The notes under the pieces are model-generated. The model searched no databases and had not been told where the DNA came from. It was given only the letters and a program-made list of their open reading frames with translations. Shown piece by piece: positions 3,450 to 10,005 of a DNA stretch of 10,116 nucleotides. How positions within the stretch are numbered: the first letter of the stretch is position 1; each line of letters starts with the position of its first letter. The stretch lies in assembly GCF_003334305.1 (NCBI RefSeq), contig NZ_QOWS01000043.1, one strand, 5' to 3'. Position numbers and translations under genes: made by a program. Source of the stretch: Escherichia coli. GTDB taxonomy: Bacteria > Pseudomonadota > Gammaproteobacteria > Enterobacterales > Enterobacteriaceae.

Positions 3450-3548
3450 ATGACAGCCCTTCTACGAGTGATTAGCCTGGTCGTGATTAGCGTGGTGGTG
3501 ATTATTATCCCACCGTGCGGGGCTGCACTTGGACGAGGAAAGGCTTAG
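3450..3548 (+). CDS. ilvL: ilv operon leader peptide (32 aa): MTALLRVISLVVISVVVIIIPPCGAALGRGKA
   Basis: ATG at 3450 through TAG at 3546-3548. 15 of 32 codons encode Leu (4), Val (6) or Ile (5), the hallmark of the branched-chain amino acid attenuation leader. An intrinsic terminator lies immediately downstream. Confidence 0.9.
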   Translation: MTALLRVISLVVISVVVIIIPPCGAALGRGKA

Positions 3549-3634: not shown

Positions 3635-3685
3635 ATGAATAACAGCACAAAATTCTGTTTCTCAAGATTCAGGACGGGGAACTAA
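3635..3685 (+). CDS. ilvX: Small ORF ilvX (16 aa: [16 protein letters not shown]) between the attenuator and ilvG
   Basis: ATG at 3635-3637 preceded by GAGGAG (3624-3629), stop TAA at 3683-3685, two nt before the ilvG ATG. It matches the position and sequence of the described E. coli small protein IlvX as I recall it. Translation cannot be judged from sequence alone. Confidence 0.55.
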
Positions 3686-3687
3686 CT

Positions 3688-5334
3688 ATGAATGGCGCAC
3701 AGTGGGTGGTACATGCGTTGCGGGCACAGGGTGTGAACACCGTTTTCGGTTATCCGGGTGGCGCAATTATGCCGGTTTACGATGCATTGTATGACGGCGG
3801 CGTGGAGCACTTGCTGTGCCGACATGAGCAGGGTGCGGCAATGGCGGCTATCGGTTATGCCCGTGCTACCGGCAAAACTGGCGTATGTATCGCCACGTCT
3901 GGTCCGGGCGCAACCAACCTGATAACCGGGCTTGCGGACGCACTGTTAGATTCTATCCCTGTTGTTGCCATCACCGGTCAAGTGTCCGCACCGTTTATCG
4001 GCACGGACGCATTTCAGGAAGTGGATGTCCTGGGATTGTCGTTAGCCTGTACCAAGCACAGCTTTCTGGTGCAGTCGCTGGAAGAGTTGCCGCGCATTAT
4101 GGCTGAAGCATTCGACGTTGCCAGCTCAGGTCGTCCTGGTCCGGTTCTGGTCGATATCCCAAAAGATATCCAGCTAGCCAGCGGTGACCTGGAACCGTGG
4201 TTCACCACCGTTGAAAACGAAGTGACTTTCCCACATGCCGAAGTTGAGCAAGCGCGCCAGATGCTGGCAAAAGCGCAAAAACCGATGCTGTACGTTGGTG
4301 GTGGCGTGGGTATGGCGCAGGCAGTTCCTGCTTTACGAGAATTTCTCGCTACCACAAAAATGCCTGCCACCTGCACGCTGAAAGGGCTGGGCGCAGTTGA
4401 AGCAGATTATCCGTACTATCTGGGCATGCTGGGAATGCATGGCACCAAAGCGGCGAACTTCGCGGTGCAGGAGTGCGACTTGCTGATCGCCGTGGGTGCA
4501 CGTTTTGATGACCGGGTGACCGGCAAACTGAACACCTTCGCACCACACGCCAGTGTTATCCATATGGATATCGACCCGGCAGAAATGAACAAGCTGCGTC
4601 AGGCACATGTGGCATTACAAGGTGATTTAAATGCTCTGTTACCAGCATTACAGCAGCCGTTAAATATCAATGACTGGCAGCTACACTGCGCGCAGCTGCG
4701 TGATGAACATGCCTGGCGTTACGACCATCCCGGTGACGCTATCTACGCGCCATTGTTGTTAAAACAACTGTCGGATCGTAAACCTGCGGATTGCGTCGTG
4801 ACCACAGATGTGGGGCAGCACCAGATGTGGGCCGCGCAGCACATCGCACACACTCGCCCGGAAAATTTCATTACCTCCAGCGGCTTAGGCACCATGGGTT
4901 TCGGTTTACCAGCGGCGGTTGGCGCACAAGTCGCACGACCGAACGATACTGTCGTCTGTATCTCCGGTGACGGCTCTTTCATGATGAATGTGCAAGAGCT
5001 GGGCACCGTAAAACGCAAGCAGTTACCGTTGAAAATCGTCTTACTCGATAACCAACGGTTAGGGATGGTTCGACAATGGCAGCAACTGTTTTTTCAGGAA
5101 CGATACAGCGAAACCACCCTTACTGATAACCCCGATTTCCTCATGTTAGCCAGCGCCTTCGGCATCCCTGGCCAACACATCACCCGTAAAGACCAGGTTG
5201 AAGCGGCACTCGACACCATGCTGAACAGTGATGGGCCATACCTGCTTCATGTCTCAATCGACGAACTTGAGAACGTCTGGCCGCTGGTGCCGCCTGGCGC
5301 CAGTAATTCAGAAATGTTGGAGAAATTATCATGA
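3688..5334 (+). CDS. ilvG: Acetolactate synthase II (AHAS II) large catalytic subunit, intact 548 aa
   Basis: Uninterrupted 548-aa ORF starting [25 protein letters not shown] with a thiamine-diphosphate binding motif ([14 protein letters not shown]...LDN). GGGGA Shine-Dalgarno-like sequence 8 nt upstream. Followed by ilvM with a 4-nt overlap. Confidence 0.95.
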
Positions 5335-5594
5335 TGCAACATCAGGTCAATGTATCGGCTCGCTTCAATCCGGAAACCTTAGAACGTGTTTTACGCGTGG
5401 TGCGTCATCGTGGTTTCCACGTCTGCTCAATGAATATGGCTGCCGCCAGCGATGCACAAAATATAAATATCGAATTGACCGTTGCCAGCCCACGGTCGGT
5501 CGACTTACTGTTTAGTCAGTTAAATAAACTGGTGGACGTCGCACACGTTGCCATCTGCCAGAGCACAACCACATCACAACAAATCCGCGCCTGA
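5331..5594 (+). CDS. ilvM: Acetolactate synthase II small (regulatory) subunit, 87 aa
   Basis: 87-aa ORF starting [12 protein letters not shown]. Its ATG (5331-5333) overlaps the ilvG last codon and stop (tcATGA), typical of translational coupling. Size and position match IlvM. Confidence 0.9.
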
Positions 5595-5613: not shown

Positions 5614-6543
5614 ATGACCACGAAGAAAGCTGATTACATTTGGTTCAATGGGGAGATGGTTCGCTGGGAAGACGCGAAGGTGCATGTGATGTCGCACGCG
5701 CTGCACTATGGCACCTCGGTTTTTGAAGGCATCCGTTGCTACGACTCACACAAAGGACCGGTTGTATTCCGCCATCGTGAGCATATGCAGCGTCTGCATG
5801 ACTCCGCCAAAATCTATCGCTTCCCGGTTTCACAGAGCATTGATGAGCTGATGGAAGCTTGTCGTGACGTGATCCGCAAAAATAATCTCACCAGCGCCTA
5901 TATCCGTCCGCTGATCTTCGTCGGTGATGTTGGCATGGGAGTAAACCCGCCAGCGGGATACTCAACCGACGTGATTATCGCTGCTTTCCCGTGGGGAGCG
6001 TATCTGGGCGCAGAAGCGCTGGAGCAGGGGATCGATGCGATGGTTTCCTCCTGGAACCGCGCAGCACCAAACACCATCCCGACGGCGGCAAAAGCCGGTG
6101 GTAACTACCTCTCTTCCCTGCTGGTGGGTAGCGAAGCGCGCCGCCACGGTTATCAGGAAGGTATCGCGCTGGATGTGAACGGTTATATCTCTGAAGGCGC
6201 AGGCGAAAACCTGTTTGAAGTGAAAGATGGTGTGCTGTTCACCCCACCGTTCACCTCCTCCGCGCTGCCGGGTATTACCCGTGATGCCATCATCAAACTG
6301 GCGAAAGAGCTGGGAATTGATGTGCGTGAGCAGGTTCTGTCGCGCGAATCCCTGTACCTGGCGGATGAAGTGTTTATGTCCGGTACGGCGGCAGAAATCA
6401 CGCCAGTGCGCAGCGTAGACGGTATTCAGGTTGGCGAAGGCCGTTGTGGCCCGGTTACCAAACGCATTCAGCAAGCCTTCTTCGGCCTCTTCACTGGCGA
6501 AACCGAAGATAAATGGGGCTGGTTAGATCAAGTTAATCAATAA
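5614..6543 (+). CDS. ilvE: Branched-chain amino acid aminotransferase (PLP fold type IV), 309 aa
   Basis: ORF starting at ATG 5614 (MTTKKADYIWFNGEMVRWEDAKVHV...) preceded by AAGGA at 5601-5605. The track's 331-aa version starts at an upstream TTG (5548) inside ilvM and is an over-extension. Sequence matches IlvE as recalled. Confidence 0.92.
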   Translation: MTTKKADYIWFNGEMVRWEDAKVHVMSHALHYGTSVFEGIRCYDSHKGPVVFRHREHMQRLHDSAKIYRFPVSQSIDELMEACRDVIRKNNLTSAYIRPLIFVGDVGMGVNPPAGYSTDVIIAAFPWGAYLGAEALEQGIDAMVSSWNRAAPNTIPTAAKAGGNYLSSLLVGSEARRHGYQEGIALDVNGYISEGAGENLFEVKDGVLFTPPFTSSALPGITRDAIIKLAKELGIDVREQVLSRESLYLADEVFMSGTAAEITPVRSVDGIQVGEGRCGPVTKRIQQAFFGLFTGETEDKWGWLDQVNQ

Positions 6544-6552
6544 ATACAAAAA

Positions 6553-6577
6553 ATGGGACGGCACGCACCGTCCCATT
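6553..6577 (+). other. Intercistronic stem-loop between ilvE and ilvD (possible weak terminator / mRNA stability or processing element)
   Basis: Perfect 8-bp inverted repeat tgggacgg (6553-6560) / ccgtccca (6567-6574) with a 6-nt loop, preceded by an A-run and followed by only TTT. This is not a strong U-tract, so partial termination at most. Confidence 0.5.
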
Positions 6578-6607
6578 TACGAGACAGACACTGGGAGTAA
6601 ATAAAGT

Positions 6608-8458
6608 ATGCCTAAGTACCGTTCCGCCACCACCACTCATGGTCGTAATATGGCGGGTGCTCGTGCGCTGTGGCGCGCCACCGGAATGACCGACGCCGAT
6701 TTCGGTAAGCCGATTATCGCGGTTGTGAACTCGTTCACCCAATTTGTACCGGGTCACGTCCATCTGCGCGATCTCGGTAAACTGGTCGCCGAACAAATTG
6801 AAGCGGCTGGCGGCGTTGCCAAAGAGTTCAACACCATTGCGGTGGATGATGGGATTGCCATGGGCCACGGGGGGATGCTTTATTCACTGCCATCTCGCGA
6901 ACTGATCGCTGATTCCGTTGAGTATATGGTCAACGCCCACTGCGCCGACGCCATGGTCTGCATCTCTAACTGCGACAAAATCACCCCGGGGATGCTGATG
7001 GCTTCCCTGCGCCTGAATATTCCGGTGATCTTTGTTTCCGGCGGCCCGATGGAGGCCGGGAAAACCAAACTGTCCGATCAGATAATCAAACTCGATCTGG
7101 TTGATGCGATGATCCAGGGCGCAGACCCGAAAGTTTCTGACTCCCAGAGCGATCAGGTTGAACGTTCCGCGTGTCCGACCTGCGGCTCCTGCTCCGGGAT
7201 GTTTACCGCTAACTCAATGAACTGCCTGACCGAAGCGCTGGGTCTGTCGCAGCCGGGCAACGGCTCGCTGCTGGCAACCCACGCCGACCGTAAGCAGTTG
7301 TTCCTCAATGCCGGTAAACGCATTGTTGAATTGACCAAACGTTACTACGAGCAAAACGACGAAAGTGCACTGCCGCGCAATATTGCTAGCAAAGCGGCGT
7401 TTGAAAACGCCATGACGCTGGATATCGCGATGGGTGGATCGACTAACACCGTACTTCACCTGCTGGCGGCGGCGCAGGAAGCGGAAATCGACTTCACCAT
7501 GAGTGATATCGATAAGCTTTCCCGCAAGGTTCCACAGCTGTGTAAAGTTGCGCCGAGCACCCAGAAATACCATATGGAAGATGTTCACCGTGCTGGTGGT
7601 GTTATCGGTATTCTCGGCGAACTGGATCGCGCGGGGTTACTGAACCGTGATGTGAAAAACGTACTTGGCCTGACGTTGCCGCAAACGCTGGAACAATACG
7701 ACGTTATGCTGACCCAGGATGACGCGGTAAAAAATATGTTCCGCGCAGGTCCTGCAGGCATTCGTACCACACAGGCATTCTCGCAGGATTGCCGTTGGGA
7801 TTCTCTCGATGACGATCGCGCCAATGGCTGTATCCGCTCGCTGGAACACGCCTACAGCAAAGACGGCGGCCTGGCGGTGCTCTACGGTAATTTCGCAGAA
7901 AACGGCTGCATCGTTAAAACCGCGGGCGTCGATGACAGCATCCTCAAATTCACCGGCCCGGCGAAAGTGTACGAAAGCCAGGACGACGCGGTAGAAGCGA
8001 TCCTCGGTGGCAAAGTTGTCGCGGGCGATGTGGTGGTGATCCGCTATGAAGGCCCGAAAGGCGGCCCTGGCATGCAGGAAATGCTCTACCCAACCAGCTT
8101 CCTGAAATCAATGGGTCTCGGTAAAGCCTGTGCGCTGATCACCGACGGTCGTTTCTCTGGCGGCACCTCTGGTCTTTCCATCGGCCACGTCTCACCGGAA
8201 GCGGCAAGCGGCGGCAGCATTGGTCTGATTGAAGATGGTGACCTGATCGCTATCGACATCCCGAACCGTGGCATTCAGTTACAGGTAAGCGATGCCGAAC
8301 TGGCGGCGCGTCGTGAAGCGCAGGAAGCTCGGGGTGACAAAGCCTGGACGCCGAAAAACCGTGAACGTCAGGTTTCCTTTGCCCTGCGCGCCTACGCCAG
8401 CCTGGCAACCAGCGCCGACAAAGGTGCGGTGCGCGATAAATCGAAACTGGGGGGTTAA
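6608..8458 (+). CDS. ilvD: Dihydroxy-acid dehydratase, 616 aa
   Basis: 616-aa ORF starting [26 protein letters not shown]. Cysteine cluster [11 protein letters not shown] consistent with Fe-S cluster ligation in the IlvD/EDD dehydratase family. GGGAG upstream of the ATG. Confidence 0.95.
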
Positions 8459-8460
8459 TA

Positions 8461-10005
8461 ATGGCTGACTCGCAACCCCTGTCCGGTGCTCCGGAAGGTG
8501 CCGAATATTTAAGAGCAGTGCTGCGTGCGCCGGTTTACGAGGCGGCGCAGGTTACGCCGCTACAAAAAATGGAAAAACTGTCGTCGCGTCTTGATAACGT
8601 CATTCTGGTGAAGCGCGAAGATCGCCAGCCAGTGCACAGCTTTAAGCTGCGCGGCGCATACGCCATGATGGCGGGCCTGACGGAAGAACAAAAAGCGCAC
8701 GGCGTGATCACTGCTTCTGCGGGTAACCACGCGCAGGGCGTCGCGTTTTCTTCTGCGCGGTTAGGCGTGAAGGCCCTGATCGTTATGCCAACCGCCACCG
8801 CCGACATCAAAGTCGATGCGGTACGTGGATTCGGCGGCGAAGTGCTGCTTCATGGCGCGAACTTTGACGAAGCGAAAGCTAAAGCGATCGAACTGTCACA
8901 GCAGCAGGGGTTCACCTGGGTGCCGCCGTTCGACCATCCGATGGTGATTGCCGGGCAAGGCACGCTGGCGCTGGAACTGCTCCAGCAGGACGCCCATCTC
9001 GACCGCGTATTTGTGCCAGTCGGCGGCGGCGGTCTGGCGGCGGGCGTTGCGGTGCTGATCAAACAACTGATGCCACAAATCAAAGTGATCGCCGTAGAAG
9101 CGGAAGACTCCGCCTGCCTGAAAGCAGCGCTGGATGCGGGTCATCCGGTTGATCTGCCGCGCGTAGGGCTATTTGCTGAAGGCGTAGCGGTAAAACGCAT
9201 CGGTGACGAAACCTTCCGTTTATGCCAGGAGTATCTCGACGACATCATCACCGTCGATAGTGATGCGATCTGTGCGGCGATGAAGGATTTATTCGAAGAT
9301 GTGCGCGCGGTGGCGGAACCCTCTGGCGCGCTGGCGCTGGCGGGAATGAAAAAATATATCGCCCAGCACAACATTCGCGGCGAACGGCTGGCGCATATTC
9401 TTTCCGGTGCCAACGTGAACTTCCACGGCCTGCGCTACGTCTCGGAACGCTGCGAACTGGGCGAACAGCGTGAAGCGTTGTTGGCGGTGACCATTCCGGA
9501 AGAAAAAGGCAGCTTCCTCAAATTCTGCCAACTGCTTGGCGGGCGATCGGTCACCGAGTTCAACTACCGTTTTGCCGATGCCAAAAACGCCTGCATCTTT
9601 GTCGGCGTGCGCCTGAGCCGCGGCCTCGAAGAGCGCAAAGAAATTTTGCAGATGCTCAACGACGGCGGCTACAGCGTGGTGGATCTCTCCGACGACGAAA
9701 TGGCGAAGTTGCATGTGCGCTATATGGTCGGCGGGCGTCCGTCACATCCGTTGCAGGAACGCCTCTACAGCTTCGAATTCCCGGAATCACCGGGCGCGCT
9801 GCTGCGCTTCCTCAACACGCTGGGTACGCACTGGAACATTTCTTTGTTCCACTATCGCAGCCATGGCACCGACTACGGGCGCGTACTGGCGGCGTTCGAA
9901 CTCGGCGACCATGAACCGGATTTCGAAACCCGGCTAAATGAGCTGGGCTACGATTGCCACGACGAAACCAATAATCCGGCGTTCAGGTTCTTTTTGGCGG
10001 GTTAG
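8461..10005 (+). CDS. ilvA: Threonine deaminase (biosynthetic threonine dehydratase), 514 aa
   Basis: 514-aa ORF starting MADSQPLSGAPEGAEYLRAV with the PLP-lysine motif SFKLRGA and a C-terminal regulatory (ACT-like) region. It starts 2 nt after the ilvD stop, with a G-rich Shine-Dalgarno inside the ilvD 3' end. Confidence 0.95.
   Translation: MADSQPLSGAPEGAEYLRAVLRAPVYEAAQVTPLQKMEKLSSRLDNVILVKREDRQPVHSFKLRGAYAMMAGLTEEQKAHGVITASAGNHAQGVAFSSARLGVKALIVMPTATADIKVDAVRGFGGEVLLHGANFDEAKAKAIELSQQQGFTWVPPFDHPMVIAGQGTLALELLQQDAHLDRVFVPVGGGGLAAGVAVLIKQLMPQIKVIAVEAEDSACLKAALDAGHPVDLPRVGLFAEGVAVKRIGDETFRLCQEYLDDIITVDSDAICAAMKDLFEDVRAVAEPSGALALAGMKKYIAQHNIRGERLAHILSGANVNFHGLRYVSERCELGEQREALLAVTIPEEKGSFLKFCQLLGGRSVTEFNYRFADAKNACIFVGVRLSRGLEERKEILQMLNDGGYSVVDLSDDEMAKLHVRYMVGGRPSHPLQERLYSFEFPESPGALLRFLNTLGTHWNISLFHYRSHGTDYGRVLAAFELGDHEPDFETRLNELGYDCHDETNNPAFRFFLAG

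Follow-up and report, generated by a model that had tools for sequence, protein, structure and literature searches.

Translational coupling of ilvD and ilvA in E. coli K-12 was claimed in the title of Harms, Higgins, Chen & Umbarger (1988, J Bacteriol 170:4798), a report cited for this coupling in a 2024 preprint and in the review of Brown & Wade (2025). For the same operon, the title of Wek, Sameshima & Hatfield (1987, J Biol Chem 262:15256) attributes the polarity of ilvG frameshifts to Rho-dependent transcription termination, and internal promoters have been published both upstream of ilvE (ilvEp) and within distal ilvD (ilvAp), where they are reported to co-exist with polarity on downstream genes. 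More generally, spacings of −4 to +3 nt are reported to give the most efficient coupling, and the NTGA arrangement (−4) has been described as the commonest spacing and as “easy to evolve”. Overlapping gene pairs are also reported often to encode subunits of heteromeric complexes (Huber et al. 2019, 2023; Brown & Wade 2025). Coupling in E. coli was reportedly unchanged upon RRF depletion, overlapping pairs included, which makes simple re-initiation doubtful in this species. Finally, the sRNA GcvB was reported to repress an ilvM translational fusion via R1 in a reporter assay, the repression being weak (PMC9299463). A literature search returned neither a direct test of ilvG–ilvM coupling nor ribosome-profiling data on ilvM.

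Gene content and junctions of the ilv operon

The window, i.e., the whole stretch of 10,116 bases analyzed here, is the ilvLXGMEDA operon of E. coli, and its ilvG is intact (Table 1). Several natural E. coli chromosomes, e.g., that of strain H15, match it at 100% identity, and alignments covering 80% of the window or more were obtained for 5397 of 5426 complete genomes of this species. In an identical E. coli genome, the RefSeq coordinates of the ilv genes are those of the window, and the features upstream of ilvL are, in RefSeq order, tRNA-Asp, tRNA-Trp, hdfR (minus strand), maoP (plus strand), and yifB (minus strand). The order ilvL-ilvX-ilvG-ilvM-ilvE-ilvD-ilvA on one strand is that of the classical E. 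coli operon, and the products of ilvG, ilvM, ilvE, ilvD, and ilvA each score far above their NCBIfam equivalog cut-offs, including 1073.9 bits against a cut-off of 738 for ilvG (NF006524) and 133.9 bits against 68 for ilvM (NF008362).

An earlier note on this DNA had named these genes and placed a 4-nt overlap between ilvG and ilvM, a 2-nt gap between ilvD and ilvA, and a G-rich Shine-Dalgarno (SD) sequence inside the end of ilvD. The equivalog models and the RefSeq match bear out the gene names and coordinates, both spacings proved exact, and the SD was confirmed as a run of six Gs (8449–8454) within Leu-Gly-Gly codons. The ilvG and ilvM coding sequences overlap in an ATGA arrangement (−4 spacing), and the ilvD/ilvA spacing is +2, so that both lie within the −4 to +3 range of coupled pairs. 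The remaining junctions are spaced by +2 (ilvX/ilvG), +19 (ilvM/ilvE), and +64 nt (ilvE/ilvD), with ilvE and ilvD having SDs of their own. The letters run ttG GAG AAA TTA TCA TGA TG at ilvG/ilvM and CTG GGG GGT TAA ta ATG at ilvD/ilvA. Each of the two junctions under study holds a ribosome-binding sequence embedded in the upstream gene, GGAG in ilvG and GGGGGGU in ilvD, with SD:anti-SD pairing energies of −6.4 and −10.5 kcal/mol, respectively, the latter being the strongest predicted in the operon. Additional in-frame codons occur at both places, namely a further ATG of ilvM (5334–5336) and a second TAA of ilvD (8459–8461), which overlaps the ilvA ATG by 1 nt. A programmed frameshift yielding an IlvG–IlvM fusion was ruled out by eye, as no slippery heptamer lies beside the overlap.

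Table 1 Features of the ilv operon in the window (positions of the 10,116-base stretch)
Feature	Coordinates	Strand	Basis
ilvL	3450–3548		RefSeq annotation of identical genome
ilvX	3635–3685		RefSeq annotation of identical genome
ilvG, catalytic subunit of AHAS II, intact frame of 548 aa, unlike the frameshifted K-12 allele	3688–5334	+	listed ORF, NF006524, RefSeq
AT dinucleotide missing from ilvG of E. coli K-12	4664–4665	+	alignment of window with MG1655
C-rich, G-poor segment with the highest C/G ratio of the operon (2.5), candidate Rho-loading region	5092–5200	+	78-nt window scan
Block nearly invariant even at synonymous sites, across the region of ilvM translation initiation	5311–5338	+	per-column entropy, 30 Enterobacteriaceae
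GGAG SD for ilvM, within ilvG, 8 nt upstream of ATG	5319–5322	+	sequence, conservation
ATGA stop/start overlap (ilvM ATG 5331–5333, ilvG TGA 5332–5334)	5331–5334	+	sequence
Candidate GcvB R1 pairing site (AUGAUGCAACAUCA) over the stop/start overlap	5331–5344	+	duplex scan and manual pairing; predicted placement
ilvM, AHAS II small subunit, 87 aa	5331–5594	+	NF008362, RefSeq
ilvE	5614–6543		RefSeq annotation of identical genome
ilvD, dihydroxy-acid dehydratase, 616 aa	6608–8458	+	NCBIfam NF009103 (1229.5 bits), RefSeq
G-rich SD (GGGGGGU) for ilvA, in the last ilvD codons	8449–8455	+	sequence
Possible hairpin, GGGGUU (8451–8456) with AACCCC (8474–8479)	8451–8479	+	minimum-free-energy fold; unproven
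ilvD TAA (8456–8458), spacer TA (8459–8460), ilvA ATG (8461–8463) (TAATAATG)	8456–8463	+	sequence
ilvA, biosynthetic threonine deaminase, 514 aa	8461–10005	+	TIGR01124 (895.6 bits), RefSeq

Conservation of the ilvG/ilvM overlap

A scan of the genome collection for IlvM gave 80 loci, in which genes were placed by tblastn and each junction was inspected; the ilvGM-type set comprised 52 loci other than the window, with IlvG at least 59% identical. The ATGA overlap was present in 51 of these 52 loci, spanning 30 Enterobacteriaceae as well as Aeromonas, Pseudoalteromonas, and Alkalimonas, the sole exception being Zophobihabitans with a 10-nt gap. The final IlvG residue varies between Ser, Lys, Gln, and Pro, yet its codon is NNA throughout because the overlap requires a terminal A. 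The SD is equally stable: with the window counted, GGAG stands exactly 8 nt upstream of the ATG in 51 of the 52 loci that have the ATGA overlap, and the Glu codon within it is GAG in 52/52, as compared to 42% of Glu codons across these ilvG genes. In Siccibacter the junction reads ATGACG, which identifies the overlapping ATG, rather than the second one, as the common start.

The constraint extends to synonymous sites. On a 30-sequence Enterobacteriaceae alignment, third-position entropy in the last eight ilvG codons was 0.128 against a gene mean of 1.10, the lowest of all eight-codon windows (rank 1 of 541). Of 5425 matching E. coli records, 4363 carry the 65-mer at this junction unchanged. 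Judged by these alignments, the conservation of the overlap is not a matter of chance, and the tightly conserved ATGA and GGAG architecture fits a co-ordinated translation of ilvG and ilvM. Selection acts on these functional elements, above all on the ribosome-binding site of ilvM located inside ilvG.

A looser junction between ilvD and ilvA

The 2-nt gap between ilvD and ilvA was found in 25 of 30 Enterobacteriaceae loci, the other 5 (some Citrobacter and Kluyvera) having 5 nt, and in 19 of 20 loci of Pseudoalteromonas; in Aeromonas and Alkalimonas the gap is 65–380 nt. Relatives keep GGGGG or GGAGG as the ilvA SD, the spacer bases vary freely across loci, and many relatives as well as E. coli S88 carry TAATGATG, i.e., an additional ATG overlapping the stop. 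Synonymous sites at the 3′ end of ilvD are ordinary (entropy 0.93, rank 305 of 609), and the ilvA SD is largely a by-product of the ilvD Gly-Gly codons. Since the 65-mer spanning ilvD/ilvA is also far more polymorphic within E. coli than the one at ilvG/ilvM, the ilvD/ilvA junction is, at the level of sequence conservation, the looser of the two.

A minimum-free-energy fold placed a hairpin at the ilvA start that, as predicted, would enclose the start codon and occlude part of the SD. Its core helix can pair in 86% of cells across relatives. Covariation in relatives was no better than in shuffled controls (70/500), and RNAalifold applied to these relatives did not recover the helix; a conserved SD-occluding hairpin was thus not upheld and is retained as a possibility only.

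Coupled translation or genome compaction

The most likely explanation for these patterns is that both junctions are ordinary tight cistron junctions of ilvLXGMEDA with coupled translation, a reading we hold with good though not full confidence. At the first junction, ribosomes translating ilvG would terminate on a UGA whose first two bases are also the last two of the ilvM AUG, and the conserved GGAG 8 nt upstream within ilvG, followed by an A/U-rich spacer, would serve ilvM initiation. Initiation would then occur in mRNA freshly opened by the ilvG ribosome, and the output of ilvM would follow ilvG translation, the two products being the subunits of one enzyme, AHAS II. From this arrangement we infer that ilvM depends on ilvG translation and that the two subunits are made 1:1; the route would be either re-initiation or de novo initiation on the unfolded mRNA. 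The “stoichiometric coupling” of IlvG and IlvM predicted by the earlier note may be considered a reasonable proposal, given the tight subunit-gene junctions of all three E. coli AHAS operons and the reports that overlapping pairs often encode complex subunits. At the second junction, ilvA translation would depend in part on ribosomes reading ilvD through to its normal stop codon, with the SD provided by the C-terminal Gly-Gly codons. For this pair, the coupling that the earlier note had read from the sequence stands, with support from the title of Harms et al. (1988) and its citations.

Alternatively, the close spacing may reflect compaction only, with the downstream genes initiating from their own SDs and the ratio of products set by initiation strength. 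The prevalence and evolutionary ease reported for NTGA spacing would fit this possibility, as would the strong SDs of both ilvM and ilvA, each at a usable distance from its start, and the ability of GcvB to repress ilvM. The folding analysis points the same way: with fold z-scores of +0.44 and −1.51, the ilvM initiation region showed no significant structure, and a structured initiation region was rejected for this gene. Given a good SD of its own and a weakly structured initiation region, ilvM may thus initiate independently. Across relatives, mean folding energies were −11.5 and −13.0 kcal/mol for the initiation regions of ilvM and ilvA and −7.0 and −7.2 kcal/mol for those of ilvE and ilvD. 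The ilvM and ilvA regions are therefore more structured than the spacer-preceded ilvE and ilvD regions and less structured than the average coding window (−15.9 kcal/mol), which fits a moderate, not an obligate, dependence on upstream ribosomes. However, compaction would not by itself account for an overlap and an SD that are fixed across ~40% protein divergence under extreme synonymous constraint, and coupling of ilvD and ilvA has been published, as titled, by Harms et al. (1988). Moreover, coupling and independent initiation can coexist. Overall, we regard compaction as an unlikely sole cause of the spacing, and retain coupled translation as the preferred reading.

GcvB and the conserved end of ilvG

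The extreme conservation at the 3′ end of ilvG could also reflect a regulatory RNA target, i.e., a GcvB site or another RNA element, instead of coupling as such. The R1-dependent repression of ilvM by GcvB was verified by the published reporter assay, and nt 69–82 of GcvB are predicted to form 14 bp, including 4 G-U pairs, with positions 5331–5344. In an R1-restricted duplex scan, the known CA-rich site near ilvE was among the top matches; the ilvM duplex was middling, at a rank of ~234 of 1206 across the operon in this crude scan. A scan with full-length GcvB was discarded because it produced long, implausible duplexes. Several observations nevertheless argue against an RNA target as the cause of the conservation. 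The conserved block continues for 20 nt on the upstream side of the predicted duplex and coincides with the footprint of SD, spacer, and start, the repression is reported to be weak, and Pseudoalteromonas loci retain ATGA and GGAG without CAACAUCA. Taken together with the modest rank of the duplex, this makes an RNA target distinctly unlikely as the source of the constraint.

For coupled translation, GcvB remains relevant to how strict the coupling would be. As ilvM has its own SD and is repressed by GcvB, its output can be tuned apart from that of ilvG, and a strict 1:1 coupling is thus not guaranteed. A more elaborate proposal, in which the overlap is a regulated node where the deeply conserved embedded SD and GcvB pairing across the AUGA together uncouple small- from large-subunit synthesis, is in our view very unlikely; if true, such a node would tune AHAS II activity or free IlvM, and the overlap would be kept because the sites of termination, of initiation, and of sRNA pairing coincide there.

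Polarity of the K-12 ilvG frameshift

In K-12 strains, ilvG carries a two-nucleotide deletion (described in PMC11383693), and both junction sequences of K-12 MG1655 are identical to those of the window. The MG1655 ilvG frame ends at codon 328, leaving 657 nt untranslated upstream of the ilvM ATG. The earlier note had predicted polarity effects from coupling and had named those already known for ilvG frameshifts as a check; this part of its coupling reading did not hold, since the literature, going by the title of the 1987 paper of Wek et al., attributes that polarity to Rho-dependent transcription termination. We accordingly follow this attribution and treat the polarity of the K-12 frameshift on ilvEDA as a separate, transcriptional effect. 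The K-12 sequence fits it: the exposed 657 nt contain the most C-rich segment of the operon (5092–5200), a candidate region on which Rho may load when ilvG translation stops early.

Restoration of ilvG was found to raise IlvA, IlvD, and IlvE protein in the 2024 preprint, an increase compatible with relief of polarity. The authors of that preprint speculated that it arises “through translational coupling”, and one could accordingly view polarity on all downstream genes as a chain of broken translational coupling, with two of the required junctions, ilvG/ilvM and ilvD/ilvA, indeed being tight. This seems highly doubtful, however, given that the chain would have to pass ilvE and ilvD, which follow spacers of 19 and 64 nt and each carry an SD, that the K-12 frameshift exposes a C-rich, G-poor segment of the kind noted above, and that Rho-dependent termination is named in the title of Wek et al. 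(1987), with the general rule restated in Brown & Wade (2025). Internal promoters further complicate any such model. A promoter-consensus scan at the junctions gave no convincing internal promoter on the plus strand.

Comparison with known systems

Both junctions are of a textbook type, their spacing class is not unusual, and they represent an already known feature of a classical operon, with ilvD–ilvA coupling published as early as 1988. The present analysis thus has little significance beyond confirmation of this feature. What it documents is a stop/start overlap and an embedded SD that persist in the AHAS II subunit genes across large evolutionary distances, which fits the general rule that the subunits of one complex tend to be specified by closely spaced genes that are translated together. 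Two points are of practical use for strain engineering. The last ~10 ilvG codons should be left out of any synonymous recoding, as they hold the ilvM ribosome-binding site, and ilvG repair in K-12-derived production strains alters downstream ilv expression via Rho-dependent polarity together with any coupling.

The closest described system is the ilvD–ilvA pair of Harms et al. (1988), which is the same locus and has the same 2-nt gap between stop and start; the published work concerns K-12 and the window a natural ilvG+ strain, with no difference at the junction. Like the NTGA pairs considered by Huber et al. and by Brown & Wade, ilvG/ilvM has the ATGA form, encodes the two subunits of one enzyme, and places the SD in the upstream ORF. 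It differs from these pairs in that the dependence of ilvM on ilvG translation is a predicted one and in the additional control point for an sRNA (GcvB) that ilvM carries. The Rho polarity of Wek et al. (1987) concerns the same operon and, by its title, explains the lower ilvEDA expression upon an early ilvG stop, but its mechanism is transcriptional rather than one of translational coupling, and no such polarity arises here as the ilvG allele of the window is intact. Finally, the large- and small-subunit genes of the other two AHAS enzymes, ilvIH (+2 nt) and ilvBN (+3 nt), are adjacent at very short spacing, as in ilvGM (−4). They differ from ilvGM in having short gaps with no overlap, in their attenuation and regulation, and in a small subunit that is either longer than IlvM (IlvH) or of another subfamily. 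All three E. coli AHAS operons nonetheless have tight junctions between their large- and small-subunit genes.

Diversity and possible mobility of the distal ilv operon

We evaluated sequence conservation at the two tight junctions of the operon across E. coli genomes by megablast. For the 65-mer spanning the ilvG/ilvM overlap, matches were detected in 5425 E. coli genomes and 4363 records were identical. The equivalent 65-mer across the ilvD/ilvA junction was identical in only 3083 records, and 761 of the 5426 genomes provided no match at all. Within-species diversity at the ilvD–ilvA boundary is unusually high.

Across genera, the likeness to E. coli of the ilvD–ilvA region was mosaic in three loci, two from Pseudocitrobacter (L017 and L020) and one from Citrobacter sp. 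Cu233 (L006). In all three, IlvA was 100% identical to the E. coli protein and IlvG 91–92% identical, while IlvD identity reached 98–99% in Pseudocitrobacter and 96% in Citrobacter sp. Cu233; IlvM identity was just 80% in both Pseudocitrobacter loci. Judged from these sequence comparisons, this pattern suggests that the distal operon was recently recombined or transferred between genera. A 5′-truncated ilvD fragment followed by a complete ilvA was also detected on an E. coli KPC plasmid, where it adjoins an IS1 transposase; its ilvD/ilvA junction is of the 5-nt type (TAAtcaccATG) found in Citrobacter and Kluyvera.

In more distant loci, gene order itself differed: ilvE was absent between ilvM and ilvD in Pseudoalteromonas (L034–L042, L047, L049, and L052–L054) and Alkalimonas, yielding the order ilvG-M-D-A. 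The ATGA overlap of ilvG and ilvM was retained in these loci, as was the 2-nt ilvD/ilvA gap in those of Pseudoalteromonas.

Features of the operon, its flank, and a plasmid-borne relative. Positions refer to the window unless a record is named.
Feature	Position	Strand	Description
yifB, RefSeq and NCBIfam model start	3097	minus	506 aa
yifB, longest ORF start	3127	minus	516 aa
ilvX			small ORF upstream of ilvG, 16 codons
ilvX/ilvG junction	3683-3690		aacTAActATG
ilvG/ilvM 65-mer	5301-5365		
ilvM low-entropy island	5462-5492		located around aatataaatatcgaattgaccgttgcc
CA-rich tract	5549-5581		GCACAACCACAUCACAACA; ilvM 3′ end, immediately 5′ of ilvE
ilvE–ilvD hairpin	6551-6578		perfect, 11-12 bp; arms AAATGGGACGG...CCGTCCCATTT
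ilvD/ilvA 65-mer	8426-8490		
Truncated ilvD and complete ilvA	L085 2122-4583		plasmid p09A19009_A_KPC, NZ_OQ821046.1

Upstream junction and yifB start

A third tight junction was observed between ilvX and ilvG, with the ilvX stop codon (TAA) separated from the ilvG ATG by 2 nt. Given this spacing, ilvG may likewise be translationally coupled to ilvX. For yifB, both RefSeq and the NCBIfam model place the start 10 codons downstream of that of the longest ORF.

Candidate signals within ilvM and the ilvE–ilvD spacer

The 64-nt ilvE–ilvD spacer contains a hairpin with a fold z of −2.5. An intrinsic terminator on the plus strand was ruled out because that strand lacks a T-run; on the minus strand, the hairpin was scored as terminator-like in our scan. 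The distance from ilvE to ilvD is far greater in some relatives, up to ~190 nt.

Third-position entropy (synonymous-site variability among 30 Enterobacteriaceae sequences) was also low in a second island, within ilvM, at 0.26 compared to an ilvM mean of 0.91. This island could correspond to the internal promoter that has been described upstream of ilvE, or to a different embedded signal. Further downstream, a duplex scan of the whole operon with R1, a pairing region of the sRNA GcvB, placed the CA-rich tract in its three highest-ranked predictions, and this predicted pairing is consistent with the reported control of ilvE by GcvB.
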